Notes: generated by a model from the sequence alone, not told the origin. A stretch of DNA of 38,570 nt from Oscillospiraceae bacterium (GCA_017828955.1 JAGAJQ010000054.1:1-38570); one strand, 5' to 3'; positions 8,450 to 35,052 are shown, counted from the first letter of the stretch. A program made the numbers and translations.

Positions 8450-8461
8450 TATAAAAACTCC

Positions 8462-13368: not shown

Positions 13369-13662
13369 TTATCGGTTTGAATGAGTCTTTGCGTTCTTTA
13401 ATTCAGCTTCTTCATAAATCTGAACAGCTTTTAAAATCGCATCTTTGTATTCAATCATAAAGTTTGCAAGGCTGTTGTATTTGGGTTTGTCAGATGCAAA
13501 TGTTTTGTTGAAAGCTTCGTTTGCATTGCCGTCCCACATAGCGTCGAGCTCTGAGGCATACTGATAAAGTCTGTTTACAGAATTCTGCCAATCGCTGATT
13601 TTAGTATCGATTTCTTTTGCGATCTGTCTCATTTCCATTGGTCTGATTTCAAATTGTGCCAT
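13369..13662 (-). CDS. esxA: WXG100 family protein (EsxA-like, 97 aa)
   Basis: Canonical length and a central W-x-G motif (MWDGNA) in a helix-turn-helix layout. Strong RBS AAGGAG. Confidence 0.85.
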   Translation of the reverse strand: MAQFEIRPMEMRQIAKEIDTKISDWQNSVNRLYQYASELDAMWDGNANEAFNKTFASDKPKYNSLANFMIEYKDAILKAVQIYEEAELKNAKTHSNR

Positions 13663-13683: not shown

Positions 13684-14646
13684 TTAATTATTTCCTATTA
13701 TAACCGCACCGTTCATATGCATATATCCATAATGCTGAAGGAATTCTTCAACCTGCATACCATGAACGGGAGCGTTGTCAACTGCTGCCATAGCGGACTC
13801 TAAAGAAAGGTCGTTTGCATAAAGTTTTGTTTCAAACCCTGCGCCCCAGGAATTATCATAGAATGTGATTTCGCCATCTTTATGTATTCCGTCTATAAAC
13901 ATTACGTGCCCATATTCTCCCGAGTCGAAAGAAACAACTATGTTTCGCAGTGGCTCTGTCTGATCCGACGCCATATATTCATTGATCATCTGTCTGAATC
14001 CGTCAACGCCCGTATATCTGTTTTCGGGTGCACCCGCGTAGTTATCAAACCATTGTCCTCCGCTTGTGTTTCCTACTGTTGCGAAGGGATAACCAAGCCC
14101 CTTTTTATGAAGACGGTACATAGTCGAGAATGTGCAGGACACCCAGCCTGATTCATCGTTGAATGGTGCAACAGCAGGATCGCCGCCTGAGGGGTCGTCC
14201 TGATAATAATATCCGCCTGCACCCGAATATCCGGTTGCTCCCGCAAGGCCTTGTGACGAATAATCCTTTGCCTTGTATCTGTCGATAACAGCATTTGAAG
14301 TCGGCGATGAAGCAGATGGTATTTTGGGTAATTTTGAAGCAAATGCTCCGAAAAGTCTTGAAGCTGCTTTATCTGCTTCGGTCATATTTATGATATATTG
14401 GTTTACTCTTTTTGATATTTCCTCAAGAGAATCAGATATATCTTTCAGTTCGCGAACAAGTTGGTTTATTTGTCTGCAATATTCTGCTGATGCCTGTGAT
14501 CTCCAAAACTCCTCTATTCGATGCGAAACTATATTCATACGTTCCGTTTCAGCGTTAATCTCAGCAGCTACTGTTCGTATCTCTTCCGAGAACCGCTGAG
14601 CCTCCATAGTATCAATAATGGCTTCCATTTGTTCTGAAAAATTCAT
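13684..14646 (-). CDS. WXG-like N-terminal domain fused to a CHAP/NlpC-P60-like peptidoglycan hydrolase domain
   Basis: The N-terminal ~100 aa is a helical hairpin with FWRSQASAEY, followed by a Gly/Ser/Tyr linker. The C-terminal domain has a Cys (WVSCTFSTMY), a His (YGHVMFIDG) and Asp-Asn (ITFYDNSW), spaced like a CHAP catalytic triad. Confidence 0.65.
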   Translation of the reverse strand: MNFSEQMEAIIDTMEAQRFSEEIRTVAAEINAETERMNIVSHRIEEFWRSQASAEYCRQINQLVRELKDISDSLEEISKRVNQYIINMTEADKAASRLFGAFASKLPKIPSASSPTSNAVIDRYKAKDYSSQGLAGATGYSGAGGYYYQDDPSGGDPAVAPFNDESGWVSCTFSTMYRLHKKGLGYPFATVGNTSGGQWFDNYAGAPENRYTGVDGFRQMINEYMASDQTEPLRNIVVSFDSGEYGHVMFIDGIHKDGEITFYDNSWGAGFETKLYANDLSLESAMAAVDNAPVHGMQVEEFLQHYGYMHMNGAVIIGNN

Positions 14647-14664: not shown

Positions 14665-15009
14665 TTAATTGCCAAACATTTTTTTGGTTGAAAAAACACT
14701 TTTCGGGATTATACCTTCTATTCCCTCAAAAATATTTGAATCGGCCGTTTCGTAGTCTATTCTTGACTGGATTATAAACTCTTTTTCTTTGTTCAGGTTA
14801 TTTTCAAGATTTAAAATCTTGTCTGATGTTTTGGCCGATTTTGAGTAATATTCTGCTTTGGCATCTGTGCCCCAATGACTTTCGTAATATTCTTTCAGAT
14901 TGTCATATTCTGATTCTAATTCTCCGATTTTTTCGGAAATTTCACCGAGCTTGTTTGCAACCTCTGTCATTACCTGAGGGTCAGAAATTATGTATTTCAG
15001 CATTTCCAT
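14665..15009 (-). CDS. WXG100-like small helical protein (114 aa)
   Basis: Central HWGTDAKAEY motif and helical heptad character. C-terminal tail TKKMFGN. RBS GAGGTG. Confidence 0.6.
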   Translation of the reverse strand: MEMLKYIISDPQVMTEVANKLGEISEKIGELESEYDNLKEYYESHWGTDAKAEYYSKSAKTSDKILNLENNLNKEKEFIIQSRIDYETADSNIFEGIEGIIPKSVFSTKKMFGN

Positions 15010-15025
15010 TTTCTATCATCACCTC

Positions 15026-15415
15026 TTATCTGGAGCCACCGCCGCCACCGCCGAAGCTTCCTTCTCCGCCGCCGCTGAAACTTATCTGCGATGAATAAGC
15101 AACTCTGTTTCTTACTTTTGCGAGAACTTGTTTCTCGCATTCTTCGTATCTTGATATAGCTTTGTTGAGAATGTCTATTTCACTTTCTATACGACAAATA
15201 ATCGATTCGAATTTACATTTGGTTTGTTCTAATCTGTAAATCTGAAGTTCTCCTGCCATACCCTGCCATACCGAAGAGAGAAGATTTTTCTGATTGACAA
15301 ATTCATCGCGCAGTTCAACAACTTCTTGATGCTTTTTATCTAAGGCTGATTTCATATCTTTGAGTTGTTCAACATCCCAATAGATTTCATCGGAAAATAA
15401 TAAAGGGTTATACAT
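15026..15415 (-). CDS. WXG100-like protein with Gly-rich C-terminal tail
   Basis: WQGMAG motif and a C-terminus GGGEGSFGGGGGGSR. The listed ATG at 15421 sits only 2 nt from the GGAG of the RBS, so the second in-frame ATG at 15415 is preferred. Confidence 0.6.
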   Translation of the reverse strand: MYNPLLFSDEIYWDVEQLKDMKSALDKKHQEVVELRDEFVNQKNLLSSVWQGMAGELQIYRLEQTKCKFESIICRIESEIDILNKAISRYEECEKQVLAKVRNRVAYSSQISFSGGGEGSFGGGGGGSR

Positions 15416-15458
15416 TGTCATCGCTCCTTTCTGTTCGTTTTCTATATTCTACATCAAA

Positions 15459-15574: not shown

Positions 15575-15630
15575 AAAATGTGATATGATTGTGCTGTAAG
15601 ATACCTATTTATGTTAAAGGGGACATTTTT

Positions 15631-16542
15631 ATGCAGAAAAAATCAAAAATAATTATCATTTCGATAGTTTCGGCTATCCTTTTGATCGTCGGAGTTTTTA
15701 CCGCCATAGCGCTTACGGGCGCAGGGAATAATACAGAAAAAGTAACAACGGAAAAACTCTCTCTCGGACAGAAATTTCTTTTAGACCTCGAATATGACAA
15801 GGCTGTTGCGGAATTTCAGGCAGTTATTGATATCGAGCCTAAGAATGTTGACGCTTACATAGGCCTTGCGGATGCCTATATCGGAATGGGCGAAGAAGAA
15901 AAAGCCATTGAAACCCTCGAAAAAGGTCTTTCAGAGACAGGCGATGAAACTATCAGGGCGAAACTCGATGAGATGAAAAAGCCTGAGGAGACAACAGTGG
16001 AGGTTACTACAACACCCGAGGAGACGACAGCCAAAAAATCAGTCTGGCCGAGGAGGGAAGATCATAGCGATGGTTCTTATTCCATACTCGACCCCGATTC
16101 AAATGGAAATTTGATAATAAGTGATTACGAAGCTGACGGAACACTTTATCGTTATTCGATACACGAATACGATTACGATTCAAATGAGGAAAAAGTAAGT
16201 CGCTATAACCCCGATGGAACACTTAATAGTTATTCGATACACGAATACGATTCAAATGGGAATGAGATAAAAATGAGTTTTTACAACGGCGACGGAACAC
16301 TTGATGAGTATTGGATATCCGAATATGATTCAAATGGAAATAGGATAAAAGAAAGTTGGTACAACCCCGACGGAACACTTGATTATTACTCTATACACGA
16401 ATACGATTCAAATGGGAATGAGATAAAATCAAGTGATTACAACCCCGACGGAACACTTTTTTGTTATTCGATATCCGAATACGATTCAAATGGAAACAGG
16501 ATAAAAACAAGTCATTACTACCCCGACGGCACACCGATTTAA
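15631..16542 (+). CDS. Paralogue A: TM anchor + TPR module + Thr/Pro/Glu linker + YD-like repeats
   Basis: Start moved to MQKKSK (RBS AAAGGGGA), shared by all paralogues. TM helix IIIISIVSAILLIVGVFTAIALTG and TPR-like module KLSLGQKFLLDLEYDKAVAEFQAVIDIEPKNVDAYIGLADAYIGMGEEEKAIETLEKG. Five 26-aa repeats of the form EYDSNGNxIKxSxYNPDGTL. Confidence 0.85.
   Translation: MQKKSKIIIISIVSAILLIVGVFTAIALTGAGNNTEKVTTEKLSLGQKFLLDLEYDKAVAEFQAVIDIEPKNVDAYIGLADAYIGMGEEEKAIETLEKGLSETGDETIRAKLDEMKKPEETTVEVTTTPEETTAKKSVWPRREDHSDGSYSILDPDSNGNLIISDYEADGTLYRYSIHEYDYDSNEEKVSRYNPDGTLNSYSIHEYDSNGNEIKMSFYNGDGTLDEYWISEYDSNGNRIKESWYNPDGTLDYYSIHEYDSNGNEIKSSDYNPDGTLFCYSISEYDSNGNRIKTSHYYPDGTPI
16165..16539 (+). repeat. 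Intragenic tandem 78-bp (26-aa) repeats, about 5 units
   Basis: GAATA(C/T)GAT unit starts at 16165, 16243, 16321, 16399 and 16477, an exact 78-nt period. Confidence 0.85.
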
Positions 16543-19741: not shown

Positions 19742-19747
19742 GAAAAA

Positions 19748-19786
19748 ATCCACACTCCCACAGGAGTGTGGATTTTTGTTTTTTTC
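19748..19786 (+). terminator. Rho-independent terminator
   Basis: 11-bp stem ATCCACACTCC / GGAGTGTGGAT with a 4-nt loop and a long T-run. Confidence 0.8.
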
Positions 19787-20214: not shown

Positions 20215-20243
20215 TTGACAGGTAATAATTAAAATAGTATAAT
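20215..20243 (+). promoter_or_regulatory. Near-consensus sigma-A promoter at the head of the long plus-strand T7SS operon
   Basis: TTGACA, exactly 17 nt, TATAAT, about 40 nt upstream of paralogue B. Confidence 0.55.
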
Positions 20244-20284
20244 AAATACGATTATACTCATTATATGGAAAGAGGCTTTTTATT

Positions 20285-21442
20285 ATGCAGAAAAAATCAA
20301 AAATAATCATAATTTCAATAGTTTCGGCAATTCTTTTAATTGTCGGAATTTTTACTGCCATAGCGCTGACGGGTGCGGATAATCCGACGCAGGCAGTTGC
20401 GACAGAAAAACTCTCTCTCGGACAGAAATTTCTTTTAGACCTCGAATACGACAAGGCCGTTGCGGAATTCACAGCAGTTATTGATATTGAGCCTAAGAAT
20501 GTTGACGCTTACATAGGCCTTGCTGATGCCTATATCGGAATGGGTGATGAAGAAAAAGCCATTGAAACCCTCGAAAAAGGTTTTATGGAAACAGGCGATG
20601 AAACTATCAGGGCGAAACTTGAAGAATTGAAAGCAACATTTAAAGGACCAAAAACAGAACGAACAGATTATAAAAATGGTTATTATCGTATAGATGAATA
20701 TGATTCAAACGGAAATTTGATAAAAAGGAGTTATTACGATACCAAAGGTGTTCTTGGAAATTATCGTATATATGAATATGATTCAAATGGAAATAAGATA
20801 AAAGAAAGTTGTTACAACAGAAATGAAACGACTTATTATACAAACGAATATGACTTGAATGGAAATTGTATAAAAATAAGTTACTACAAAATAAACGGGA
20901 TTCTTTGTTATATAGATGAGTATAATTTAAACGGAAAGTTGATAAAAAAGAGTTATTACAACGCCGATGGAACATATAGCTCGATACACGAATACGATTC
21001 AAACGGAATTTTGATAAAAAATAGTTATTACAACGCCGACGGAACGCTTGATTATATACTGGAATACGATTCAGACGGGAAATTGATAAGAGAAAACCAT
21101 TACAATGCCGACGGAATTTTTGATTGTATGCATGAATACGATTCGAAAGGTATTTTGATAAAAAGAAGTTGGTATAACCCCGATGGAACACTTATTGATT
21201 ATTACATATGCGAATGCAATTCAAATGGAAAATTGATAAAAGAAAACCATTACAATGCCGACGGGATTTTTGATTGTATATTGGAATACGATGTATATGG
21301 TAATGAAATAAAAAGAAGTTGGTATAACCCCGACGGAACGCTTATTGATTATTACACATACGAATACGATTCAGAGAGCCAACTTATAAAAGAAAATCAT
21401 TACGATGCCGACGGAACGCTTATCGAAGAATACACCTACTAA
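20285..21442 (+). CDS. Paralogue B: TM anchor + TPR module + YD-like repeats (no Thr-rich linker)
   Basis: The N-terminal ~110 aa is nearly identical to A, D and E. Junction KGPKTERTD, then about 11 repeats (EYDSNGNLIKRSYY, YNADGTLDYILEYDSDGKLIRENHY). Confidence 0.85.
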   Translation: MQKKSKIIIISIVSAILLIVGIFTAIALTGADNPTQAVATEKLSLGQKFLLDLEYDKAVAEFTAVIDIEPKNVDAYIGLADAYIGMGDEEKAIETLEKGFMETGDETIRAKLEELKATFKGPKTERTDYKNGYYRIDEYDSNGNLIKRSYYDTKGVLGNYRIYEYDSNGNKIKESCYNRNETTYYTNEYDLNGNCIKISYYKINGILCYIDEYNLNGKLIKKSYYNADGTYSSIHEYDSNGILIKNSYYNADGTLDYILEYDSDGKLIRENHYNADGIFDCMHEYDSKGILIKRSWYNPDGTLIDYYICECNSNGKLIKENHYNADGIFDCILEYDVYGNEIKRSWYNPDGTLIDYYTYEYDSESQLIKENHYDADGTLIEEYTY

Positions 21443-21460
21443 CCCAAGGAGGAAAATAAA

Positions 21461-22126
21461 ATGAAAACAAAAATCTTATGTTACATAATCGACGGAATAA
21501 TACTCATATCGCTTATTGCGGTATGGGTTTATGTTCTTTTAACAGAAATGCCCATGAAATCAATAATCGCGATAGCGCTTATCTCGCTTGTCCTCATAAT
21601 ACTCGGCGGAGTTGTTCTTTTTGTGGCGATGAGAAGTGAAAGCGGAGAAAAGTCTGTTAAAAAACAGGTTGAAGAAAAAGAAGAAGTTCCCGTTATCGAA
21701 AAGCCTGAACCTGTTACTAAAAACAACGACGATCCGGAAACTGATATTATGCTAAAAGAACCGACAACAGAGATCATACTTGACAAAGGGTCTGACAAAA
21801 CAGAAATCATTCCTCAGAAGAGAAGTTTTTATGTAAAACTTCAGGATAAGAACAACTCTGTAAAGACATATCAGACATATTTTGACACAGAGGCTATCAT
21901 CGGAAGACATGAAGGAAACTGCAATATTGTCCTTGCGGATGAAAAGAGCGTTTCAAGACGCCATTGCAGACTTTTTGTCGATAAGGACAGAATTATGGCG
22001 GAGGACTTAGGGTCTTCAAACAGAACTTATGTAAACGGAATTCAGGTTGAGGGACGTGCACTTGAAATAAAAAGCGGAGATGAACTCAGAATGGGCAGAG
22101 CGATATTTATTGTCACAATAAATTAA
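21461..22126 (+). CDS. Membrane-anchored FHA-domain protein
   Basis: Two N-terminal TM helices and an acidic linker containing TTEII and KTEII. The C-terminal FHA domain has canonical phosphothreonine-binding residues (IIGRHE, SVSRRH, SSNRTYVNG). Confidence 0.85.
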   Translation: MKTKILCYIIDGIILISLIAVWVYVLLTEMPMKSIIAIALISLVLIILGGVVLFVAMRSESGEKSVKKQVEEKEEVPVIEKPEPVTKNNDDPETDIMLKEPTTEIILDKGSDKTEIIPQKRSFYVKLQDKNNSVKTYQTYFDTEAIIGRHEGNCNIVLADEKSVSRRHCRLFVDKDRIMAEDLGSSNRTYVNGIQVEGRALEIKSGDELRMGRAIFIVTIN

Positions 22127-22139
22127 GGGAGAGAACTCT

Positions 22140-23624
22140 ATGAAATACTGTGAATATACAAATACAGGAATAATCCGAAGCGTCAATCAGGACAGCCTTC
22201 TTTCGCTCTCGATGAACGGCTCGGGGCTTTTTGTCGTTGCCGACGGAATGGGCGGACATATAGACGGAGAGATTGCCAGCAAGGCTGTTAAAAAGGCCTG
22301 TCAGAAATGGTGGAACACATCTTTTATGGAAAATTCAGATATGGATTTTCTTCTGGCGGTTGAAGAAATCAAGGCAGCGATTGAAATTGTCAACAAAAAT
22401 CTCATAAAGAAAATGGAAGGTACGGGAAAAATCTGCGGAACAACCGTTGCCGTTGTTTTCATTCATAACGGTGCTTATGCCGCTATGAATATAGGCGACA
22501 GCAGAATATATCTTTCGAATAAAAGAGGTGTGCGTAAAATTTCATTTGACCACACCTTGAATTCGTTTGAGGAGATAAAAAACACCGCTCTTTCTGAAAA
22601 GGATAAACTTACTCAGGCGATAGGTGTTAAAGAAGATCTCAGCTGGTACACGGCGACAGATACACTCAAAAACGACGAAAAATTCTTTATCTGCACAGAC
22701 GGTGTTTATAAATACACAGAAGAGGAAGACCTTTTTTCTGCAATAAAGAATTACTCAGAAGAGGAAGAGATAAAGAAGGAAATCGAAAAGCAGGTTATCT
22801 TAGGCGGTGCGCCTGATAACTTTTCTTTTATTGCAATAGATATGAGAAAAGAAAAAGCCTCGGTTTCAAGAAAGCCTCTTATCATCGTTTCGGCGATAGC
22901 GGTTGCACTTTTCGTTATATTCACAGTGATTTTTGCGGTTGCCGTTTCGGGAGATAAAGGAGAAAATATACAGACTGTTATGTCTGAAAAACTCTCCCTC
23001 GGTCAGAAATTTCTTTTAGACCTCGAATACGACAAGGCTGTTGCAGAATTCACAGCCGTTATTGATATCGAGCCTAAGAATGTCGACGCTTATATGGGGC
23101 TTGCTTCTGCTTATATCGGTATGGGTGAAAAGGATAAGGCTATTGAAACTCTCGAAAAGGGTCTTATGGAAACGGACGACGAAACTATCAGGGCAAAACT
23201 TATGGAACTCAAAACCCCCGAAGAAACAACAGCAGAGGTGACTACTACCCCCGAAGAAACAACCCCCGAGACTACAACAACCCCTGAGGAGACGACAACT
23301 GTTCCTGAAACGACAATGGTTGTAACTACACAAAAAGCAGCAACAATAAAAAAATTCGAATATGAAGATGAGGATATTATAAGTGAATTTGATTCAAATG
23401 GAAGAATAATAAAAAGAAGTATCTATAAGAAAGACGGAACACTTTTAGAATACGAAATATATGGATACGATTCATACGGGAATATGTCAGAAGGATATTT
23501 TTATAAAGCAGACGGAACACTTCTTCGTTATTTCAGAGAAAAATACGATGAGAACGGAAGGATTGTAGATGCGACTATTAAAGTTTTAGAAGGAACAGCA
23601 TCTCCAATGGGAATTGTGCAATAA
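22140..23624 (+). CDS. PP2C (PPM) Ser/Thr phosphatase fused via a TM helix to the paralogue TPR + linker + YD-like ectodomain
   Basis: PPM motifs NQDS, VVADGMGGH, GDSRIY and TDGV. TM helix LIIVSAIAVALFVIFTVIFAVAV. This is followed by KLSLGQKFLLDLEYDKAVAEFTAVIDIEPKNVDAYMGL, a TTTPEETT linker and FDSNGRIIKRSIY repeats. Confidence 0.85.
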   Translation: MKYCEYTNTGIIRSVNQDSLLSLSMNGSGLFVVADGMGGHIDGEIASKAVKKACQKWWNTSFMENSDMDFLLAVEEIKAAIEIVNKNLIKKMEGTGKICGTTVAVVFIHNGAYAAMNIGDSRIYLSNKRGVRKISFDHTLNSFEEIKNTALSEKDKLTQAIGVKEDLSWYTATDTLKNDEKFFICTDGVYKYTEEEDLFSAIKNYSEEEEIKKEIEKQVILGGAPDNFSFIAIDMRKEKASVSRKPLIIVSAIAVALFVIFTVIFAVAVSGDKGENIQTVMSEKLSLGQKFLLDLEYDKAVAEFTAVIDIEPKNVDAYMGLASAYIGMGEKDKAIETLEKGLMETDDETIRAKLMELKTPEETTAEVTTTPEETTPETTTTPEETTTVPETTMVVTTQKAATIKKFEYEDEDIISEFDSNGRIIKRSIYKKDGTLLEYEIYGYDSYGNMSEGYFYKADGTLLRYFREKYDENGRIVDATIKVLEGTASPMGIVQ

Positions 23625-23681
23625 TATCTGACAAAATATCCGAATCGGATAAAACCTACTAACCCACCATGGAGGAAGATT

Positions 23682-25898
23682 ATGTTTAAGCAAGGCGAAT
23701 TACTCAACGGAACATACAAGATAATCGAAAATATAGGCTCGGGCGGTGGCGGAGAAATCTATAAAGCCTATCATACACACCTCGATTGTTATGTTGCCGT
23801 TAAACTTATAAAGGATAACATCAAGGGAAAACTTGATGACAGGGCAGAAGCCGATATCCTCAAAAAAATAAAACATTCATATCTTCCTCAGGTTTATGAC
23901 TTTGTCATCACTGACGAGGGGGATGTCTATACGGTTATGGAATTCGTTGAGGGGATGTCTTTTTCAGAGCATCTCAAAAACGGAAAGACATTCACAAACG
24001 CACAGGTTATAAAATACGCAAAGCAGGCTTGTGAGGCACTTTCATACCTGCATACAAGAAAACCCGCTATTGTCCACAGTGATATCAAACCTGCGAATAT
24101 TATGCTTACTCCCGATGACAATATCTGCATAATAGACTTCAACATCTCGTCTGTACTCAGTGAAGGAGGAGCGTTTGCTGTCGGCAAAAGCGACGGATAT
24201 TCTCCCCCTGAGCAGTATGTAAAGAAGAACAAGACGGAAAAAGCAAAGACAGATAAAACATCAACAATAACAGAAACAGAAATCTTAGGCGAAACAGAAT
24301 TTGACAGTTTTGAAGAAGATACTTCGATAACAGTTACAACCATAACAGAAATCGAGGAGACAGAAGCTGTTACAGACATAGTAGGAGAAGAGAAAGAAGA
24401 AACTGATATCACTCCCGAAAAGAGCAGTAGTTTTGCCTCAAAGATGATAGTTTCAAAAGCGATTATTGATGAACGTTCAGATGTTTATGCCCTTGGCGCA
24501 ACACTTTATCATCTCATCAGCGGAAAAAGACCTGAAAAGTCGACAGATGGTGTTACTCCCATAAACAAACTCGATACAGAGGCAAGCTACGGACTTCGCT
24601 GTATCATTTCAAAGGCTATGGAAAATTCTCCGAAAAAGAGATATGCAAACGCAGGGGAGATGCTTATTGCCCTTGAAAATATTCACAGTATGGAAAAGCT
24701 ATATAAAAGCTTTACTTTAAGAAACCGCATAATCTATGCCCTTTTGATTTTGGGAACAGCCTTTTTCTCTGTTCTTGCCTTTATGGGATATAAGAGAATC
24801 GGAACAGAAAATGCCATGGCATATAAGGAGTATACAGAAAAGCTCGTCGTTTTAAGAGAAAAGGGCGACGAAAAGGGCTTTGAAGAAATCTATCAGAAGG
24901 CAGAGGCTATCTATAACGACAGACTCGATATCCATTTTCAGAAAGCACTCTTTCTTTTTGAAAAGGGTGAATATGATAACTGTCTTTCATATATGGATGA
25001 AATAATGAGAAATCATCCCGAATACACGGACGATGCCGAAATGGCGGACCTTTTATTCGTTCATGCAAACTGTTATTTTGAAAAAGAGGATTATTCTTCG
25101 GCTATCATAAAATACAAATCCGCGATAGATAAAAAATCGGATAACGGAGAATATTACCGCGACTATGCAATTTCTCTCGCGAGAACGGGCGAGCCGGACA
25201 AGGCTTCGGAAGTTCTGAAAAGGGCGACAGAACTCGGTCTTTCGGAAGAAAATATATGCCTCGTTGACGGCGAAATAGATTTTGTAAGAGGAAGATATGA
25301 AGAGGCTGAAAAATCGCTTTTGAAATGTATATCCGTTTCATCTGATGAATACATAAAACAGCGTGCGTATATTCTTATAAACAAGGTTTATTCAAAAACG
25401 GGCGAAACCGCAAAGAATACGGAAATTCTCGAAAAGGCTTTAAAGGAACTTCCCGAAGAAAGACTTTACAGCATATATGAGCTTCTTTCACAATGCTATC
25501 TTGATATGGGAAAAGAAACGGGTGAAAACGACTATTATCTCAAAGCCGTTGATATTTTTTCGGTTATGCAGAAAAAGGGTTTCGGCGGATACAGAGTTTC
25601 TGAAAATAAGGCTGTCGCTTATTATACAATAGGCGATTGCGAGTCGGCAAAGGCGGAACTGAATAAGATGAAAGAGGATTTCGGAGAAAATTATAGAACA
25701 GATATGTATCTCGCTTTCTGCGAACTTCGTGAAGAGTCTGAAAAAAGCAATAACAAGAGAGACTATTCGGATTTTCTCAAATATTACAATAACGCGAAAA
25801 GCCTTTATGAAAAAGAGGCAGAGGATGGTATGACCGATATGGAAATGCAGGTTCTCACGGACACATATCATCAGCTAAAAGAGGGCAACTGGTTTTAA
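23682..25898 (+). CDS. Membrane Hanks-type Ser/Thr protein kinase with C-terminal TPR-like domain
   Basis: G-loop GSGGGGEIYKA, VAVK lysine, catalytic loop HSDIKPANIML (non-RD), DFN and SPPE. A ~70-aa Thr/Glu-rich insert precedes SDVYALG. One TM helix (IIYALLILGTAFFSVLAFMGY), then ~370 aa of helical TPR-like repeats. Confidence 0.9.
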   Translation: MFKQGELLNGTYKIIENIGSGGGGEIYKAYHTHLDCYVAVKLIKDNIKGKLDDRAEADILKKIKHSYLPQVYDFVITDEGDVYTVMEFVEGMSFSEHLKNGKTFTNAQVIKYAKQACEALSYLHTRKPAIVHSDIKPANIMLTPDDNICIIDFNISSVLSEGGAFAVGKSDGYSPPEQYVKKNKTEKAKTDKTSTITETEILGETEFDSFEEDTSITVTTITEIEETEAVTDIVGEEKEETDITPEKSSSFASKMIVSKAIIDERSDVYALGATLYHLISGKRPEKSTDGVTPINKLDTEASYGLRCIISKAMENSPKKRYANAGEMLIALENIHSMEKLYKSFTLRNRIIYALLILGTAFFSVLAFMGYKRIGTENAMAYKEYTEKLVVLREKGDEKGFEEIYQKAEAIYNDRLDIHFQKALFLFEKGEYDNCLSYMDEIMRNHPEYTDDAEMADLLFVHANCYFEKEDYSSAIIKYKSAIDKKSDNGEYYRDYAISLARTGEPDKASEVLKRATELGLSEENICLVDGEIDFVRGRYEEAEKSLLKCISVSSDEYIKQRAYILINKVYSKTGETAKNTEILEKALKELPEERLYSIYELLSQCYLDMGKETGENDYYLKAVDIFSVMQKKGFGGYRVSENKAVAYYTIGDCESAKAELNKMKEDFGENYRTDMYLAFCELREESEKSNNKRDYSDFLKYYNNAKSLYEKEAEDGMTDMEMQVLTDTYHQLKEGNWF

Positions 25899-25910
25899 GG
25901 AGTTTTAGAT

Positions 25911-26066
25911 ATGATTGAATTTATAAAGAATCTTTCTGTCGGCGAGCTTATGTTCTATGGCGGAATTTCAGGCGCAGGGCTTTGCGTTATCGCGATGATA
26001 GTGGGAATTCCCCTTACAAACCTCGGCAAAAAGCAGGTTAAGAACAAAATAGACAAGGAGTATTAA
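25911..26066 (+). CDS. Small membrane protein (51 aa), absent from the ORF track
   Basis: RBS AAGGAG 8 nt upstream of the ATG. Sequence MIEFIKNLSVGELMFYGGISGAGLCVIAMIVGIPLTNLGKKQVKNKIDKEY has one TM helix and a basic tail. It exactly fills the gap between the kinase gene and paralogue D. Confidence 0.5.
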   Translation: MIEFIKNLSVGELMFYGGISGAGLCVIAMIVGIPLTNLGKKQVKNKIDKEY

Positions 26067-26069
26067 ACT

Positions 26070-27176
26070 ATGCAGAAGAAATCAAAAATAATTATCATTT
26101 CGATAGTTTCGGCTATCCTTTTGATCGTCGGAGTTTTTACTGCCATATCACTTACGGGTGCAGGAAATAATACAGAAAAAGTAACAACGGAAAAACTCTC
26201 TCTCGGGCAGAAATTTTTACTCGACCTTGAATACGACAAGGCCGTTGCGGAATTTCAGGCAGTTATTGATATCGAGCCTAAGAATGTTGACGCTTACATA
26301 GGGCTTGCGGATGCCTATATCGGAATGGGCGAAGAAGAAAAGGCAATAGAAACTCTCGAAAAAGGTTTTATGGAAACAGGCGATGAAACTATCAGGGCGA
26401 AACTCGATGAGATTAAAGAGGTTGAGGAGACGACAGCGGAGGTTACTACTACTCCCGAGGTGACGACAACTCCGCCTGAAACGACAACAGAGGAGGTAAC
26501 GACAACACCTGAGGTTACGACTACTCCCGAGGTTACTACAACACCCGAGGTGACAACAACTGAGGAAATAACTACAACTCCCGAGGTTACTACAACCCTA
26601 AAAGGTCCGAGAACGGAGAGGGTAGATTTTGATGACGGAAGTTATCTGATTCACGAATATGACAAAGATGGTCAGTGTTTAAAAGAAACAGTATATTATT
26701 CAAATGGCGAATCCTATGGAGAAGCCACTAACGGCTTAACTGGTTGGTGGAATAATAAGAAAAATGAAACAGTTGAATACCGGTTTATTCATTTTAATAA
26801 ATGGATACGCGAGTTTGATTCAAATGGAAATATGATAAAAGTAAGTTATTACAACGCCGACGGAACGCTTAGTTATTACTATATAAACGAATACGATTCA
26901 AATGGAAATAGGATAAAAGAAAGTAGTTACAACGGCGACGGAACACTTATAGTTATATTAGAATACGATTCAAATGGAAATAGGATAAAAGACAGTTGGT
27001 ACCACTCCGACGGAACACTTTATAATTACTCTATACACGAATACGATTCAAATGGAAATAGGATAAAAGAAAGTTGGTACACCCCCGACGGAACACTTTA
27101 TTTGATATCCGAATACGATTCAAATGGAAATAGGATAAAAGAAAGTTGGTACAACCCCGACGGAACACCGATGTAA
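26070..27176 (+). CDS. Paralogue D: TM anchor + TPR module + long PEVTTT linker + YD-like repeats
   Basis: The N-terminal module is by eye about 90% identical in nucleotides to paralogue A. Junction KGPRTERVD, then repeats EYDSNGNRIKESWY. Confidence 0.85.
   Translation: MQKKSKIIIISIVSAILLIVGVFTAISLTGAGNNTEKVTTEKLSLGQKFLLDLEYDKAVAEFQAVIDIEPKNVDAYIGLADAYIGMGEEEKAIETLEKGFMETGDETIRAKLDEIKEVEETTAEVTTTPEVTTTPPETTTEEVTTTPEVTTTPEVTTTPEVTTTEEITTTPEVTTTLKGPRTERVDFDDGSYLIHEYDKDGQCLKETVYYSNGESYGEATNGLTGWWNNKKNETVEYRFIHFNKWIREFDSNGNMIKVSYYNADGTLSYYYINEYDSNGNRIKESSYNGDGTLIVILEYDSNGNRIKDSWYHSDGTLYNYSIHEYDSNGNRIKESWYTPDGTLYLISEYDSNGNRIKESWYNPDGTPM
26421..26598 (+). repeat. Thr/Pro/Glu/Val low-complexity tandem repeat (PEVTTT units)
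   Basis: EVTTTPEVTTTPPETTTEEVTTTPEVTTTPEVTTTPEVTTTEEITTTPEVTTT, encoded by degenerate 18-nt units. Confidence 0.8.
26811..27173 (+). repeat. Intragenic tandem 72/78-bp repeats, about 5 units
   Basis: Unit starts at 26811, 26889, 26961, 27039 and 27111. The string GAATACGATTCAAATGGAAATAGGATAAAAGA recurs four times, at the last four unit starts. Confidence 0.85.
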
Positions 27177-27202
27177 AAATCCCCGAAAGGACTTGAAAAA
27201 TT

Positions 27203-30200
27203 ATGGCATATATATTTTATTTCAACTTCAAAGAAAATGTTTATGAATACCCGTTGCCTGCTGTCAACAACAGGGTCATAAGCATTGATATATCTGAATT
27301 CTCATCGGAAAAAGGCGTTATAAATCTTGAAATCTTTGACGGCGTATGGAAACTCCTCCCCTCAGAAGATTTCAACTTCTCAGTGAACAACTCAATAATA
27401 ACAGAGAAGAAAATCGAAGACGGCGACAAAATCACAGCGAAGAAAAAACGCGGGGAACTCACCTTTATGATTTTTGCGCTCAAAGCCTCTGAAAACACAA
27501 GCGTATACAGAAAATGGTCGCTCGAAGGGGTAAACAGGGTTACTGTCGGTATGGATGAAAACTGCGATATCGTTTATAAAGAACAGTTTGTCAGCCATAA
27601 ACACGCAACTATCGAAAGAAAAGGCTCGGGCTTTTTCCTTACAGACAATTCAACAAACGGAACATTTTTAAATGGCTCGAAAATATCGGGCGAAACCCCT
27701 CTTTCTATCTTTGACACAATATACATACTGGGTCTTAAAATAATCTTTTTAGGCGAATATATAGCAACAAACAAGATTTTGGAACTCGGCGTTTCGCTTA
27801 CTGAAATATGCGATATAAACAATGATTATGAGCCTTATGAGGATGAATCCGACTTTTCTCGTTCACCGAGAAGAATAGAGCCTCTCGATGAAGAAGTAAT
27901 TGAGATAGAATCCCCTCCCTCACAGCATAAGGCTTCGAGTCAGCCTCTTATTTTCATAATAGGCCCTTCGGTAACAATGCCACTGCCGATTATGATTTCT
28001 GTCATCATAAATATGATGTCATCGGGCAACACATCAAATCCGCTTATGTATTTAGGAACGGTAATTTCCGTTGTATGTTCGGGATTCATAGGCGCGGGTT
28101 GGGCACTCGCACATCAGTTTTATAACAAGAAGACAGTTAAAAAACAGGAAGAAGCAAGAGTAAAGGCATATGGCGAATATATTGCCAAAAACGAAAATCT
28201 TCTCTCTGAAAAACAGGATAAGAACAAGCGTATTATAGATGAACAGTTTTTATCCTCAGATAAACTTATGAAAAAGGTTTTCAAGGATAAGACTTTTTTA
28301 TGGAACAGAAATATAAACCACGCCGATTTCTCGAAAATCCGTTTCGGAACAGGCTCTGTAAAACTTCCTAACGGAATATCTGTTCCCAAGGAAAGATTTT
28401 CTATGAATGACGACACCCTTGCCGACAAGCCGAGAGAGCTTTTCGACCGTTACAACACAATGGAAGACTGCGCATATACCGCAAGACTCAACGACAGCAA
28501 GATATGGGGCGTTATCGGTGAATATAAGAATGTTATGAATATCGTCAATAACATCGCCGTTCAGCTTTCGGCGCTCCATAGTTATAGCGATATCAAGATA
28601 GCGATTCTCTGTAAAGAAAACGAAAAGGAAAAATATCTCTGGATGAAGTGGCTTCCTCATATATTCTCATCCGACAGAAAAGTAAGAATGTTCGGATGCG
28701 ACAGCAACTCTGTAAAGAATGTATGCAATTTCCTCGGCGGAGAACTCCGTTCAAGAGAGGAGAATGCAGAGGGTGCATTATCAAGGGATTTAAGATTTCT
28801 CCCTCATTATTTCGTTATCTGCACAGACAAGTCCATCCTTGAAAAGAACAGTCTTTCAAAATACATAATGAATAATTCCGAGCTCGGTTTTACATTCATT
28901 CTTGCATACGAAAAGATGGACAAACTCCCCAATGAATGTAAGGTCATCATACAGCATGACGAAACATACAGCGGAATATATTCGCTTTCATCAACTATCG
29001 ACGAAACAAACTCTGTAAATTTCGATAACGTTGATGTAAAATACGCAGAAAAATATGCAAGAGCAATAAGCGGACTTTATCTTACAGAATTCACACAGGG
29101 CGAAATCCCCGCTTCTATCGATTATCTCGATATGCTCGGCATAGGAAAATTCGAACAATGGAACCTTATCAGAAAATACAAGGAAAACCGTTCTTATGAA
29201 AGTCTTGCTTCGTTTATAGGAATAGGAACAGGTAACCGCCCCGTTGTTCTTGATATCAGCGAAAAGATGCATGGTCCTCATGGTCTTATTGCGGGAACAA
29301 CAGGCTCGGGTAAGAGTGAAACAATACAGACATTTATTCTTTCGCTTATTTTAAATTACAGCCCCGATGAAGTTGCGTTTATCCTTATTGACTATAAGGG
29401 TGGAGGAATGGCAGCCGCTTTTGAAGGAATACCTCACCTTGCGGGAATTATCACAAACCTCGGCGGAGATACAGGCGAGGGTGAGATTGACGAAAACCTT
29501 ACAAGACGTGCACTTATCTCGATAAAGAGTGAAATAAAGAGAAGACAGCAGATTTTCAACCGCTATAAAGTAAACCATATAAACCAGTATATAAAGATGT
29601 ACAGAGGCGGTGCTGTCAGCGAAGCATTACCCCATTTGATTATTATATCGGACGAATTTGCAGAACTTAAACACAAACAGCCTGAATTCATCAAAGAACT
29701 TGTCAGCGTTGCCAGAGTAGGAAGAAGCCTCGGCGTTCATCTTATACTTGCAACACAGAAACCTTCGGGGGTTGTCGATGAAGAAATCTGGAGTAACTCA
29801 CGTTTCAAAATCTGTCTTAAAGTTCAGGACAAGCAGGACAGTATAGGAATGCTCAAACGCCCCGAGGCAGCATATCTTGTCAATACGGGACGCGCTTATA
29901 TGCAGATAGGAAACGATGAGATTTTTGATATGTTCCAGTCGGGATATTCGGGTGCTGAATATATGCCGACAGATGAATTTGTTTCTTCAAAGGATAAGGA
30001 AGTCATTATGATTGATATCGACGGAACATATCTTGAAGAAAACACAATGACAGGAAAAGGAAATCAGACAGGTATCTCACAGCTTAAAGCGGGTATTGAT
30101 TATGTAATAAATGTTTCGGCAATGAGTGGTTTCAAACCGACAAGAAAACTTTGGAATGAATGTCTGCCTTCGCTTATCGGTCTTGATAAACTTGATGTTT

Positions 30201-31798
30201 CGGGCATTGATTTTAAAAGCGGGCTCATCTCCTGCTATGGTATCATTGATAACCCTGAAAAACAGTCACAGTATCCTGCTGTCGTTGATGTTTCAAAGAC
30301 ATCTCATATACTTGTTTCAGGTATGTCAGGCTCAGGAAAATCAACATTCTTACAGACAATGGTATATTCTCTTGTTTCAAGATATACTCCCGATGAAATA
30401 CAGTTCTACTTCATAGATTTTTCAAGCAGAACAACAAGAAAATTTGAAAAGCTTCCTCATTGCGGAGGAGTTGTTTTCCAGGAACACAACGAACTCATAG
30501 AAAGACTTTTCAGACTTCTTGAAAACGAATGTGATGAAAGAAGAAGAATTTTCGATAAGGCAGATGCGGGAAGTTTCGGTGAATATACAAAGAAGAATAA
30601 AATGCCTATGATACTTGTTGTAATCGACAATTATGCAGGTTTTTCAGAAGGGTATCCCGAACTTGCAGAAAAACTCGCAGGGTTTTCAAGAGACTGCCTT
30701 AAATACGGCATCCAGCTTGTTATTTCAGCGAATAATACAAACGATGTGAAATACAAGACAATGCAGAATATCGGATATAAAATCGCACTCCGCCTTTCAG
30801 ACCGTTATGGATATAACGAAATACTCGGTGGTGCGCCCGAATTCACACCTTCAAAATATGCAGGCCGTGGTCTTGTAAAAGAAGACGGTATTTTAGAATT
30901 CCAGACAGCTGTTCCGTTTGAAATCGAAGATGAAACAGAACGTTCTGAAAAGATGATAAAGGAATTTTCAGATATCGCAAAGAAATACAAGAAACACACT
31001 CCCGCAAAGAGAATTCCGTCTATCCCCAGGGATGAAATATATGCTGATTTCTATGAAAAGAATAAGGCGGATGGTATGATTCCTTTAGGATACGATACAA
31101 ACGATATCTCACCTCTTTCTCTTTCGAGACGTGATACATTCTGTCTTGCTGTCGGTGCTTCTGAAGAAAAGAGTATATCGCTTATGTTCAGTAACTTCAC
31201 TTACTGTGCGAAACAGTCGGGCGCTGTTGTATGGTATTTTAAAACATCGACAGATATGCTCTGTAAACCTGAATATGTCGACAGGGTTTATACAAAGACA
31301 AAAATCGAAGATTTTCTTAAAGCCTTGCAGAAAGAGTTTGAAACTGCATCTGAAATAAGAGGGAAATATAAGGATTCTATGAGTGTAAACGAGATGGAAA
31401 CAAAGGTTGTCGAAGAAAAGAAGATGCTCTATATCTTTATTGATAATATGGCAGAATTTTGTAAGATAATATATAATCCCAAAAATGAATATCCGCTTAA
31501 TAATATTGTTGAGGAGACATTCAGATATGGCGAAAAGAGAGGGGTAACCTTTATAGTTGGCTTCGGAACTGATAGCTATATCGACGCTATACACAGCACA
31601 GCCTGCAGGAATTTCCTCTTTAATAAGACAATTCTTCATATCGGCGGACATCTTGATCAGCAGAAACTTTATTCTTCATCATTGCCTTATAATATCCAGA
31701 ACAGACCTCTTGATTTACAGACAGGCTATTTCTTCAACGGAACAACCGAAAGACAGATATTCATACCATTGTCCGAACGAGGTGAAAACGATGCTTGA
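27203..31798 (+). CDS. essC: T7SS FtsK/SpoIIIE-family ATPase EssC (N-terminal FHA region, 2 TM helices, 3 ATPase domains)
   Basis: FHA-like segment VTVGMDENCDIVYKEQFVSHKHATIE...STNGTFLNG and two TM helices. D1 has GTTGSGKSE and IIISDEFAEL. D2 has GMSGSGKST and VVIDNYA. D3 has the degenerate P-loop GASEEKS. The 1531-aa length is typical of EssC/YukB. Confidence 0.9.
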   Translation: MAYIFYFNFKENVYEYPLPAVNNRVISIDISEFSSEKGVINLEIFDGVWKLLPSEDFNFSVNNSIITEKKIEDGDKITAKKKRGELTFMIFALKASENTSVYRKWSLEGVNRVTVGMDENCDIVYKEQFVSHKHATIERKGSGFFLTDNSTNGTFLNGSKISGETPLSIFDTIYILGLKIIFLGEYIATNKILELGVSLTEICDINNDYEPYEDESDFSRSPRRIEPLDEEVIEIESPPSQHKASSQPLIFIIGPSVTMPLPIMISVIINMMSSGNTSNPLMYLGTVISVVCSGFIGAGWALAHQFYNKKTVKKQEEARVKAYGEYIAKNENLLSEKQDKNKRIIDEQFLSSDKLMKKVFKDKTFLWNRNINHADFSKIRFGTGSVKLPNGISVPKERFSMNDDTLADKPRELFDRYNTMEDCAYTARLNDSKIWGVIGEYKNVMNIVNNIAVQLSALHSYSDIKIAILCKENEKEKYLWMKWLPHIFSSDRKVRMFGCDSNSVKNVCNFLGGELRSREENAEGALSRDLRFLPHYFVICTDKSILEKNSLSKYIMNNSELGFTFILAYEKMDKLPNECKVIIQHDETYSGIYSLSSTIDETNSVNFDNVDVKYAEKYARAISGLYLTEFTQGEIPASIDYLDMLGIGKFEQWNLIRKYKENRSYESLASFIGIGTGNRPVVLDISEKMHGPHGLIAGTTGSGKSETIQTFILSLILNYSPDEVAFILIDYKGGGMAAAFEGIPHLAGIITNLGGDTGEGEIDENLTRRALISIKSEIKRRQQIFNRYKVNHINQYIKMYRGGAVSEALPHLIIISDEFAELKHKQPEFIKELVSVARVGRSLGVHLILATQKPSGVVDEEIWSNSRFKICLKVQDKQDSIGMLKRPEAAYLVNTGRAYMQIGNDEIFDMFQSGYSGAEYMPTDEFVSSKDKEVIMIDIDGTYLEENTMTGKGNQTGISQLKAGIDYVINVSAMSGFKPTRKLWNECLPSLIGLDKLDVSGIDFKSGLISCYGIIDNPEKQSQYPAVVDVSKTSHILVSGMSGSGKSTFLQTMVYSLVSRYTPDEIQFYFIDFSSRTTRKFEKLPHCGGVVFQEHNELIERLFRLLENECDERRRIFDKADAGSFGEYTKKNKMPMILVVIDNYAGFSEGYPELAEKLAGFSRDCLKYGIQLVISANNTNDVKYKTMQNIGYKIALRLSDRYGYNEILGGAPEFTPSKYAGRGLVKEDGILEFQTAVPFEIEDETERSEKMIKEFSDIAKKYKKHTPAKRIPSIPRDEIYADFYEKNKADGMIPLGYDTNDISPLSLSRRDTFCLAVGASEEKSISLMFSNFTYCAKQSGAVVWYFKTSTDMLCKPEYVDRVYTKTKIEDFLKALQKEFETASEIRGKYKDSMSVNEMETKVVEEKKMLYIFIDNMAEFCKIIYNPKNEYPLNNIVEETFRYGEKRGVTFIVGFGTDSYIDAIHSTACRNFLFNKTILHIGGHLDQQKLYSSSLPYNIQNRPLDLQTGYFFNGTTERQIFIPLSERGENDA

Positions 31799-32522
31799 TG
31801 TTTATATCTATGACGCGGATATTTCAAGGCATACTACTGTTCAGAGCTATTGTTTCAGATTTTTTATGAGGAAAAATCTGACATCCGAAATAAAACTCAT
31901 AACAGCCGACGCTATGGAAGCAGGCAGAGTTTTTTCAGAAGAGGAGAAGCAATCTGTTTTTATAATAAGCTGTGATGAATATTCCGATTATCTTATAAAA
32001 TCTATGAGAAAAGGGAATGCCGAAAATTATCTGATAATTGTTGCAAACGATTTTGATGATATTCTTAAATATCTGAAACCCGGTCATAAACCATCAGGAT
32101 TTATATTAAGACCTATGAAACCCTATGACATAGAAAAACTTATGGGAGATATAATTTCGGATTATAAATCGAAAAAAGAAAAGCAGGAGTTTGATTGTTT
32201 TGTTTTCAAGATGAAGTCAACGGAATACAGCATTCCGTTTGACTCGATAATATCCTTTGAAAGCGGAAACAAGAAAATAAAACTGAAAACCGCCGAAAAG
32301 GAATATTCCTTTTACAGCACATTCGATGATATACAGAACACCCTCCCCGATGGGTTTATAAGGGTGCATAAAAGCTATATCATCAATATGGCGCATATAA
32401 AAGAAATTCATTATGCCGATTCTGAAATTATTTTAAGCGGTGGAACAAGCGTTTATTTTTCAAGGACATACCGCAGTGTTGTCAGAGAACTTTTCAACAT
32501 AAACGCAGAAACAGTCTCATAG
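31791..32522 (+). CDS. LytTR-family DNA-binding protein with atypical receiver-like N-terminal domain
   Basis: ATG at 31791 follows RBS GAGGTGA and overlaps the essC stop (ATGCTTGA). The listed start at 31557 lies inside essC. The C-terminal LytTR motif is FIRVHKSYIINMAHIKEI. The N-terminal domain has VYIYDAD and VFIISCD but lacks the conserved receiver Thr/Ser and Lys (LIIVAN, FILRP). Confidence 0.75.
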   Translation: MLDVYIYDADISRHTTVQSYCFRFFMRKNLTSEIKLITADAMEAGRVFSEEEKQSVFIISCDEYSDYLIKSMRKGNAENYLIIVANDFDDILKYLKPGHKPSGFILRPMKPYDIEKLMGDIISDYKSKKEKQEFDCFVFKMKSTEYSIPFDSIISFESGNKKIKLKTAEKEYSFYSTFDDIQNTLPDGFIRVHKSYIINMAHIKEIHYADSEIILSGGTSVYFSRTYRSVVRELFNINAETVS

Positions 32523-32534
32523 GAGGAAATTTAT

Positions 32535-32792
32535 ATGACAAAGATACTTGTTGAAATAAATTGCCCCTCAACTGCAAGAAACTATGAATTCTGGATTTCA
32601 AAGCAGATGATTGTAAAGGACGTTATAAAAATCTGCAAAGAAGAAATCTGTATGACAGAGGGCAATAAGAAGATTTTCAACGATAACGAAAATATGGTGC
32701 TTTTTTCACAGAGGCTCCGTATTCCGCTTAATGAAAACTATACCGCAACCGAAGCGGGAATCATAAGCGGAGATAAACTTATGATTGTTTAA
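32535..32792 (+). CDS. esaB: YukD/EsaB-like ubiquitin-fold T7SS protein (85 aa)
   Basis: Size, a beta-grasp-like pattern (KILVEINCP, YEFWISKQMIVKDV, ISGDKLMIV at the C-terminus) and position beside essC. RBS AGGAGG. Confidence 0.65.
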   Translation: MTKILVEINCPSTARNYEFWISKQMIVKDVIKICKEEICMTEGNKKIFNDNENMVLFSQRLRIPLNENYTATEAGIISGDKLMIV

Positions 32793-32806
32793 AGAGGACG
32801 AATTTT

Positions 32807-33652: not shown

Positions 33653-33667
33653 TTTTTGGATTTTCAT

Positions 33668-33705
33668 AAAAAGGACATCTTTTTTAAGATGTCCTTTTTA
33701 TTTTA
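33668..33705. terminator. Bidirectional rho-independent terminator
   Basis: 12-bp stem AAAAAGGACATC / GATGTCCTTTTT with an 8-nt loop and flanking A/T runs, between convergent operons. Confidence 0.75.
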
Positions 33706-35048: not shown

Positions 35049-35052
35049 TTTA

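Follow-up and report, generated by a model that had tools for sequence, protein, structure and literature searches.

Garrett, Higginson & Palmer (microLife 2024; PMC11217815) defined, among type VII secretion systems (T7SSs), the subtypes T7SSc to T7SSj, whose parts include membrane kinases (TsxD, with a TPR C-terminus in TsjD), PPM phosphatases (TsxF), separate FHA proteins (TsxJ), and small proteins with a single transmembrane (TM) segment (TsxK/H). Citing the threonine-phosphorylation pathway of type VI secretion systems (T6SSs), they proposed that T7SSc to T7SSj are regulated by phosphorylation. In Schaalia odontolytica it has been shown experimentally that a kinase/phosphatase pathway phosphorylates Thr in a disordered region of an FHA protein and controls Esx (PMC13622651, a 2026 preprint). 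Here we describe a locus in a 38,570-nucleotide (nt) stretch of DNA from an Oscillospiraceae bacterium (GCA_017828955.1 JAGAJQ010000054.1:1-38570), referred to below as the window, in which consecutive genes for an FHA protein, a PP2C phosphatase, and a Ser/Thr kinase (21461-25898) lie upstream of a gene for the T7SS ATPase EssC. Sequence comparisons make it probable that these three genes form a reversible Thr-phosphorylation module that is dedicated, in this lineage, to a noncanonical T7SS. That T7SS comprises EssC, a LytTR regulator, a YukD-like protein, and WXG100 substrates, without EssA, EssB, or EsaA in the window. An earlier note on this DNA, made from the sequence by a model, was not aware of such a switch as a described feature of T7SSb. 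However, kinase, PPM, and FHA genes in T7SSc to T7SSj and the analogy with T6SS were published in 2024 (PMC11217815); the concept is not new, and the points added here are incremental.

The three genes are intact plus-strand open reading frames (ORFs) at 21461-22126, 22140-23624, and 23682-25898. They belong, together with essC, to a predicted transcription unit of 10 genes (20285-33652) in the order TM-TPR-DUF2963, FHA, PP2C, kinase, micro-TM, second TM-TPR-DUF2963, essC, LytTR, an 85-aa gene, and third TM-TPR-DUF2963. Gaps between genes in the unit are 12 to 57 nt, except for 171 nt 3' of the kinase gene, and this longer gap contains an ORF for a 51-amino-acid (aa) single-TM protein. A promoter-like site on the plus strand 5' of the operon (20215-20243) has the form TTGACA-17-TATAAT, a 12/12 match to the sigma-70-type consensus. 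A strong terminator-like hairpin with 16 pairs and a T run lies 3' of the operon on the same strand (33666-33701), and another strong terminator hairpin lies upstream of the operon (19744-19777). Rfam and tRNA scans of the whole window were empty. The intact ORFs, their domains and TM segments, and the operon signals bear out the claim of the earlier note that membrane FHA, PP2C, and kinase genes stand in a row in one operon. The note had further placed the triad just upstream of an FHA-bearing EssC. The genes do share an operon, but they are not adjacent, because the 51-aa TM gene and a TM-TPR-DUF2963 gene separate the triad from essC, and the FHA domain of EssC has G116-M117 rather than GR.

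The FHA protein (221 aa; 21461-22126) has two hydrophobic segments at its N-terminus, which are the predicted membrane anchor, and lacks DUF6382. Its FHA domain (Pfam FHA, E = 8e-18, aa 146 to 212) has the phosphothreonine (pThr)-binding residues G148-R149, S165-R-R-H168, N187, and N192-G193. EssC (27203-31798, plus strand; Walker A motifs at 698 and 1040) passed the NCBIfam EssC model TIGR03928 with 1066.7 bits versus a cutoff of 778.4, and its best relative in the PDB was B. subtilis YukB (E = 5e-133). The FHA domain of EssC (aa 113 to 175) reads V-G116-M117, S131-H-K-H134, and STNG at 150 to 153. It keeps SxxH and NG but lacks the GR-motif Arg by which canonical FHA domains make contact with the phosphate. 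This Arg was also missing in all of the LytTR-linked EssC proteins examined, in which the position is GS, GK, GT, or GM and SxxH and NG are retained. In contrast, GR, SxxH, and NG are found in 98 to 100% of TseC and TsjC (PMC11217815). Without the Arg, an FHA-bearing EssC is poor evidence that EssC itself reads pThr. Because the standalone FHA protein carries all of the motifs, the EssC domain lacks the phosphate-contacting Arg, and kinase-bearing subtypes keep the EssC GR, the standalone protein appears to be the likelier, more credible pThr reader.

The phosphatase (494 aa; 22140-23624) has a PP2C/PPM catalytic domain at aa 7 to 233. A profile of the Stp1/IreP-type PP2C aligned with it end to end (E = 1e-39), and the motifs RSVNQD (13-18), DGMGGH (35-40), GDSR (119), TDG (186), and DN (226) are present. 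One TM helix at approximately aa 245 to 270 is followed by a TPR unit, a Thr/Pro-rich linker, and DUF2963 repeats that are predicted to be extracytoplasmic. Between near-identical strains the length of the protein differs (494 versus 536 aa) with that of the DUF2963 array.

The kinase (738 aa; 23682-25898) is of the Hanks type (Pkinase, E = 4e-38), with one TM helix at approximately aa 348 to 371, a catalytic domain predicted to be cytoplasmic, and a C-terminal TPR solenoid predicted to be extracytoplasmic. The glycine loop, K41, E56, H132-S-D134, N139, and D152-F-N154 are present and were invariant in an alignment of 25 homologues with 37 to 80% identity. The kinase is non-RD, with HSD for HRD, and has DFN, invariant in the family, in place of DFG. 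An insert of about 80 aa (aa 181 to 260), disordered and rich in Thr and Glu, lies between an APE-like motif (SPPE) and helix F. In an AlphaFold2 model (mean predicted local distance difference test score, 80.7) the kinase domain is well folded, the insert disordered, the TM helix long, and the TPR solenoid confidently all-helical. The top fold matches of the model in Foldseek were S. aureus PknB and M. tuberculosis PknA (TM-score of about 0.8 on the target), along with consensus TPR proteins; the list, mostly kinases and TPR proteins, has no bearing on similarity to EssB. The housekeeping pair PrkC/Stk1-PrpC/Stp1 differs in that its kinase has a PASTA ectodomain rather than TPR, and the match of the window kinase to NF033483 was limited to the kinase domain (147 bits versus a cutoff of 450). 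From their conserved residues, the FHA protein, PP2C, and kinase all look intact in catalysis or binding.

The linkage of these genes to essC was evaluated by scanning metagenomes with the N-terminal part of EssC as the seed, which yielded 80 loci, 31 of which had long flanks and were counted. LytTR genes were present in 29 of the 31, directly after essC, and WXG100 genes in 28. The window kinase family was found in 18, with weaker kinase matches in 6 more, and a separate FHA protein was found in 22. At least one of kinase, FHA, and PP2C was present in 26 of the 31. Tad genes were found at none of these 31 loci. These counts indicate that the linkage of Thr-phosphorylation genes to LytTR-linked essC is real and conserved. 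Several arrangements occur, one being the tight block of FHA, PP2C, and kinase genes that lies directly upstream of essC. The layout of the triad is not due to chance, since it recurs in locus L004, an uncultured Clostridia bacterium in which gene order is identical to that of the window and kinase identity is 68%, and many metagenome loci have its parts in the neighborhood of related essC genes. Two further strains share the gene order of the window at 98% kinase identity.

A second set of loci was anchored on the kinase. Homologues numbered more than 3000, with full-length relatives at 36 to 41% identity from Ruminococcus, Lachnospiraceae, Oscillospiraceae, and Herbinix. When one genome per species was scanned, 80 loci were obtained, mostly from metagenome-assembled genomes (MAGs) of Clostridia. 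The ORFs of these loci were annotated by phmmer with the proteins of the window and of the loci. Three contexts were recognized. In one (context A), the order is EssC-YukD-WXG-WXG-Big_2 protein-vWA/FHA-kinase. In another (context B), which includes the window and L004, the kinase precedes EssC-LytTR-YukD-WXG at some distance, with a vWA-FHA protein and PP2C nearby; vWA-FHA proteins also occur in Clostridia relatives of the window locus. In the third (context C), Tad-pilus genes (TadB/C, DUF5702, prepilin peptidase) are followed by DUF6382/FHA, PP2C, and kinase genes. T7SS genes were linked to 22 of the 80 kinases, and among the 38 loci with full 10-kb flanks 13 were linked to T7SS genes, 8 to Tad genes, and 17 to neither. 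Many of the loci with neither are short contigs. In 63 of 76 related loci, whether of the T7SS, Tad, or other contexts, the kinase is followed by a single-TM protein of 40 to 60 aa with the shape G-x-x-M-F-Y-G-G-I, then a TM segment, then a Lys/Arg-rich tail. The window copy is the 51-aa micro-protein encoded directly 3' of the kinase gene (25911-26066, plus strand), which the earlier note missed and which is probably equivalent to TsxK/TsxH. The three contexts, the interleaving of T7SS- and Tad-linked kinases in a tree, and the presence of the micro-TM protein in all contexts indicate that the signaling cassette is modular and not intrinsically part of a T7SS.

The kinase, micro-TM partner, DUF6382-FHA, and PP2C genes were found beside Tad-pilus genes in at least 14 genomes. 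The kinase, DUF6382/FHA, and PP2C genes lie directly downstream of Tad/Flp genes (TadB/C, DUF5702, prepilin peptidase A24) in L003, L009, L016, L018, L031, L036, L059, L060, L062, L066, L071, L072, and L082, with the kinase at approximately 10001 in most of these 13 loci. No paper that we found describes how a Ser/Thr kinase controls Tad pili in Clostridia. Another locus, L078 (2185-12160) from an uncultured Ruminococcus, has four tandem genes of the window kinase's family and no T7SS or Tad genes within 10 kb. Cultivable relatives are represented by Ventrimonas faecis, Lachnoanaerobaculum sanguinis, and Blautia spp. (among L009, L035, and L024/L065), and of these loci only L035 had essC within the flank.

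The T7SS encoded with the triad was compared with described types. The gene that overlaps the essC stop, with a true start near 31791, encodes a ComE/AgrA-like regulator (31791-32522, plus strand; LytTR domain, E = 6e-22) that resembles TsiN. The profile of its family matched full-length ComE (E = 3e-15) and matched receiver domains weakly, the receiver being diverged and its acidic pocket not conserved. The gene is wedged between essC and the 85-aa gene, its position after essC is kept across the EssC clade, and no cognate histidine kinase is encoded in the operon. The 85-aa protein (32535-32792, plus strand) is a YukD/EsaB-like ubiquitin-fold protein (TsxB). As a single sequence it had no match in the PDB, and the window copy reached only E = 0.035 with Pfam YukD, so that the assignment required the family profile, whose top PDB match was YukD, and a Pfam scan of homologues, 15 of 16 of which matched YukD (best E = 5e-11).

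An EssC of the Firmicutes type, the YukD-like protein, and the WXG100 proteins are shared with T7SSb. However, EssA, EssB, and EsaA had no Pfam or NCBIfam match among the island ORFs of at least 85 aa (11609-37676), although they could lie outside the 38.5-kb window. By gene content, therefore, the system is not a T7SSb, contrary to its placement in the earlier note, and it has an active-looking kinase where the EssB pseudokinase would be.

The EssC N-terminus was compared by BLAST with the N-terminal 610 to 680 residues of reference TsxC proteins, which were read from optical character recognition (OCR) text of Fig. S2 of PMC11217815. It scored 206 bits with TsiC (27% identity), 177 with TseC, 170 with TsfC, 136 with TsjC, 135 with TsdC, and 86 with S. 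aureus EssC; the lead of TsiC over TseC and TsfC is small. In a crude neighbor-joining tree with these OCR-derived references, all LytTR-linked EssC proteins, including that of the window, formed one large clade next to TsiC and apart from the TseC/TsdC and TsjC/TsfC groups. On the basis of the EssC tree and scores and the TsiN-like LytTR gene, T7SSi appears to be the nearest described type. T7SSi of Vallitalea (TsiB, TsiC, TsiG, TsiM, and TsiN) likewise has a LytTR/CheY-like regulator and a YukD-like gene with essC, and an FHA domain at the EssC N-terminus with incomplete pThr motifs. Simple membership in T7SSi is called into question by the large distance, by a kinase that resembles TsjD, and by gene content, because T7SSi is listed without a kinase (Table S1, PMC11217815), whereas the window has a Hanks kinase, PP2C, and a canonical FHA protein. 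Furthermore, no P-loop or ParA-like match that could represent TsiM (ParA/MinD-like with a C-terminal TM segment) was found among the island ORFs, nor was an EspG-like TsiG identified among them, an EspG-like fold not having been searched for at the structure level. Members of the large LytTR-linked clade derive from MAGs of Lachnospiraceae, Oscillospiraceae, and other Clostridia rather than from Vallitalea.

With T7SSj and T7SSe the window has in common a membrane kinase (with a TPR C-terminus in TsjD as well), PPM, a separate FHA protein, a small protein with one TM segment, a YukD-like protein, and WXG100 pairs, and the phospho-regulation proposed for them is, by analogy, the same as that suggested here. 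They differ in having the large Ig-like TsxI, whereas no Big_2/Ig-like protein is encoded in the window island. TsjJ is DUF6382 plus FHA, while the window FHA protein is a short two-TM protein, and the PP2C of the window is, unlike theirs, membrane anchored with an ectodomain. Assignment to T7SSj, considered because of the TPR kinase, was ruled out by gene content, EssC FHA motifs, and EssC similarity. EssC proteins of context A matched TseC at 342 to 478 bits (34 to 41% identity), a clear match that identifies context A as T7SSe; the 177 bits of the window EssC led us to reject T7SSe for the window.

The resemblance to the T6SS pathway (PpkA/PppA/Fha1; TssL in Agrobacterium) lies in a transmembrane Hanks kinase, a PP2C, and an FHA reader encoded inside a secretion cluster. 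The machine in the window is, however, a T7SS, the FHA protein and PP2C are membrane tethered, and the kinase ectodomain is TPR rather than vWA. No T6SS (Tss) family matched in Pfam or NCBIfam scans of the island, and the likeness is one of logic only. The Esr threat-sensing pathway of Actinomycetales (PMC13622651) offers a comparable logic, in that a kinase/phosphatase pair sets the Thr phosphorylation of an FHA output protein, within a disordered segment, and controls Esx/T7SS. Unlike the window, the actinobacterial Esr pathway has MoxR, vWA, and beta-propeller sensor proteins, and the output shown for Esr1 is transcriptional.

Intact-looking proteins, predicted to be cotranscribed with essC, and relatives that keep kinase, FHA, and PP2C genes make T6SS-like control by Thr phosphorylation a reasonable reading of the locus. 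An envelope or cell-contact cue would be conveyed to the kinase through its TPR ectodomain, and the coencoded TM-TPR proteins and the 51-aa TM partner may help in sensing. The kinase might then phosphorylate Thr in disordered segments, either in its own T/E-rich insert (T199, T231) or in the linker of the FHA protein (T103, T114), or in both. The membrane-tethered FHA domain could bind the pThr and recruit or stabilize the EssC machine, promoting its assembly or activity, and PP2C would reverse the phosphorylation and reset the system. Structurally, the kinase probably also stands where T7SSb has the EssB pseudokinase, and a transcriptional output may come in addition from the embedded LytTR regulator.

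The proposed sites were suggested by short motifs. Sites of the form pT-x-x-hydrophobic suit the established peptide preferences of FHA domains. The FHA protein linker has three T[ED]I[IM] motifs, TDIM (T94), TEII (T103), and TEII (T114), the last two of which are also present in L004, and the kinase insert has the T[ED]-hydrophobic-hydrophobic motifs TEIL (T199) and TDIV (T231). This motif is about 20 times denser in kinase inserts than in the remaining protein, with at least one copy in only 13 of 48 genome kinases. T103, T114, T199, and T231 are candidate phospho-sites only as a local lead for the window and L004.

Several findings weigh against a phosphorylation switch dedicated to this T7SS. 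The kinase family is not T7SS specific. Tad genes were linked to 18 of the 80 kinase loci and 40 had neither T7SS nor Tad genes within the flank, while T7SS- and Tad-linked kinases interleave in a neighbor-joining tree in which context agreed between nearest neighbors in 28 of 41 cases. The possibility raised in the earlier note that the triad might prove to be a generic module unlinked to essC in relatives is thus partly borne out by these counts, the remaining 22 loci being T7SS linked. PP2C was found at only 6 of the 31 long-flank EssC loci, a count that is partly too low because PP2C often lies beyond the flank, past the WXG genes. Activity of the non-RD kinase, with its DFN, is assumed, and EssC, whose FHA domain and those of the LytTR-linked relatives examined lack the Arg, may not read pThr. 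The T[ED]-hydrophobic-hydrophobic motif was rejected as a general FHA-docking motif, since it was not enriched ahead of FHA domains in 153 FHA proteins (0.21 versus 0.23 per 100 aa). In addition, our literature search found no experimental work on any T7SSc to T7SSj kinase, and Zhang et al. 2012, on polymorphic toxins, had nothing relevant on T7SS-linked kinases. Of the equivalence with the T6SS switch drawn in the earlier note, the intact proteins, predicted cotranscription, and conserved linkage stand; the novelty and the T7SSb assignment do not, and the EssC FHA domain is degenerate.

It is also conceivable, although unlikely, that the output is transcriptional, with the kinase and phosphatase setting the activity of the LytTR regulator, by Ser/Thr phosphorylation of its atypical receiver or via the FHA protein, and thereby switching expression of the operons for the T7SS and the WXG proteins. 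In 29 of the 31 long-flank relatives the LytTR gene comes directly after essC, the acidic pocket of the receiver is not conserved, no cognate histidine kinase is encoded in the operon, and the known kinase control of T7SSs in E. faecalis (IreK) and Schaalia (Esr1) is transcriptional. However, a membrane-tethered FHA protein and an FHA-bearing EssC suit control of assembly better, and an Agr-like pair encoded just downstream on the opposite strand could serve the regulator. The two outputs are not mutually exclusive. Distinctly unlikely, in our assessment, is that the triad is a generic, portable envelope-sensing cassette for surface structures, placed near essC by the clustering of surface and competition genes, with DUF2963/TPR surface proteins or other envelope processes as its real targets. 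The occurrence of the same kinase family and micro-TM partner at Tad-pilus loci with DUF6382-FHA and PP2C would be explained in this way, as would the half of the kinase loci that have neither T7SS nor Tad genes in the flank and the presence in the operon of three TM-TPR-DUF2963 proteins and a PP2C with the same ectodomain. Yet in this lineage the genes fall within one predicted transcription unit with essC-lytTR-yukD, EssC-anchored loci mostly carry signaling genes and never Tad, and many of the "neither" loci are short contigs.

The absence of EssB, EsaA, and EssA from the window also brings to mind a kinase that is mainly a structural core subunit, replacing EssB and contacting the N-terminal FHA region of EssC, with phosphotransfer dispensable for secretion. 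Its topology is EssB-like, as Garrett et al. noted for TscD, and the EssC FHA domain resembles that of T7SSb in being degenerate; the EssB-FHA contact there does not depend on phosphorylation. Such a kinase would hardly be expected to keep all of its catalytic residues invariant across 25 homologues with 37 to 80% identity, and without phosphotransfer there would be little reason to encode an active-looking PP2C and a canonical FHA reader beside it; we consider a mainly structural role very improbable. The Thr-phosphorylation module and these alternatives overlap. A broader scenario, which is doubtful but can be tentatively entertained, is that kinase, 40- to 60-aa TM partner, and TM-TPR proteins form a portable envelope-sensing cassette that gut and rumen Clostridia have repeatedly plugged into two unrelated nanomachines, T7SSs and Tad pili. 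An active kinase would then take the place of EssB in the unnamed LytTR-linked clade, and the phospho-independent EssB-EssC(FHA) contact of T7SSb would be a degenerate remnant of an ancestral phospho-switch.

The WXG genes form a separate minus-strand cluster (15421-11609). Two WXG100 proteins (13369-13662 and 13011-13334, minus strand) score above the NCBIfam cutoff (TIGR03930), and two small WXG100-like helper genes (14665-15421, minus strand) fall below it. Between them, a gene at 13684-14646 on the minus strand encodes a WXG100-like N-terminus joined to a CHAP peptidoglycan hydrolase domain, a probable candidate for a T7SS-exported, cell-wall-degrading effector; no immunity gene for it was identified. 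Also in this region is a gene (11609-12937, minus strand) for one of a group of 440- to 470-aa proteins without a family match that, in related T7SS loci (L001, 12633-14048; L088, 19623-20927), stand beside the kinase or beside WXG100 pairs. Similarity among these proteins is weak (28 to 46 bits). A Pfam scan of the unassigned L010 genes and the 442-aa gene of the window gave no informative family, the sole match being a zinc ribbon on a 573-aa protein.

The TM-TPR-DUF2963 paralogues of the operon, all on the plus strand, are the first operon gene (20285-21442), with a signal-anchor TM segment, one TPR unit, and DUF2963 repeats; the gene in the kinase-essC interval (26070-27176); and the last operon gene (32807-33652). 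A 300-nt module that encodes the signal-anchor TM segment and one TPR unit has five copies in the window (15630-15929, 20284-20583, 22865-23164, 26069-26368, and 32806-33105). Four copies, with 85 to 93% DNA identity, start TM-TPR-DUF2963 genes, and the fifth (66%) is in the PP2C ectodomain. The length of the DUF2963 array varies between near-identical strains; one paralogue is 368 aa versus 449 or 475 aa in L084/L085.

Directly downstream of the T7SS operon (33708-35760 and 35849-37060, both minus strand) are the genes for the Agr-like two-component pair, in which a polytopic GHKL histidine kinase is accompanied by a receiver-LytTR regulator, and for a BTAD-type regulator. The pair is kept in near-identical strains. 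Elsewhere in the window (6010-9133, minus strand), DUF4956 and VTC-domain genes lie beside the gene for a CotH-family kinase that has a TM helix and a tail rich in Pro, Gln, and Glu; this cluster is unrelated to the T7SS module.

Regulation of T7SSs in Bacillota is poorly understood. New here are the finding that kinase, PP2C, and FHA genes do occur in a widespread clade of LytTR-linked T7SSs whose nearest described type is T7SSi; the fusion of a membrane-anchored PP2C with an ectodomain of TPR and DUF2963 units; a short two-TM FHA protein; and a kinase plus micro-TM cassette common to T7SS and Tad-pilus loci. The LytTR-linked clade is common in gut and rumen Clostridia and is barely sampled in the published classification. 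The locus offers a compact set of genes predicted to be cotranscribed (FHA, PP2C, kinase, micro-TM, EssC, LytTR, and YukD) for asking if Thr phosphorylation acts as a gate on assembly, on transcription, or on both. The presence of the kinase family at Tad loci as well suggests a general coupling of surface sensing to envelope machines.

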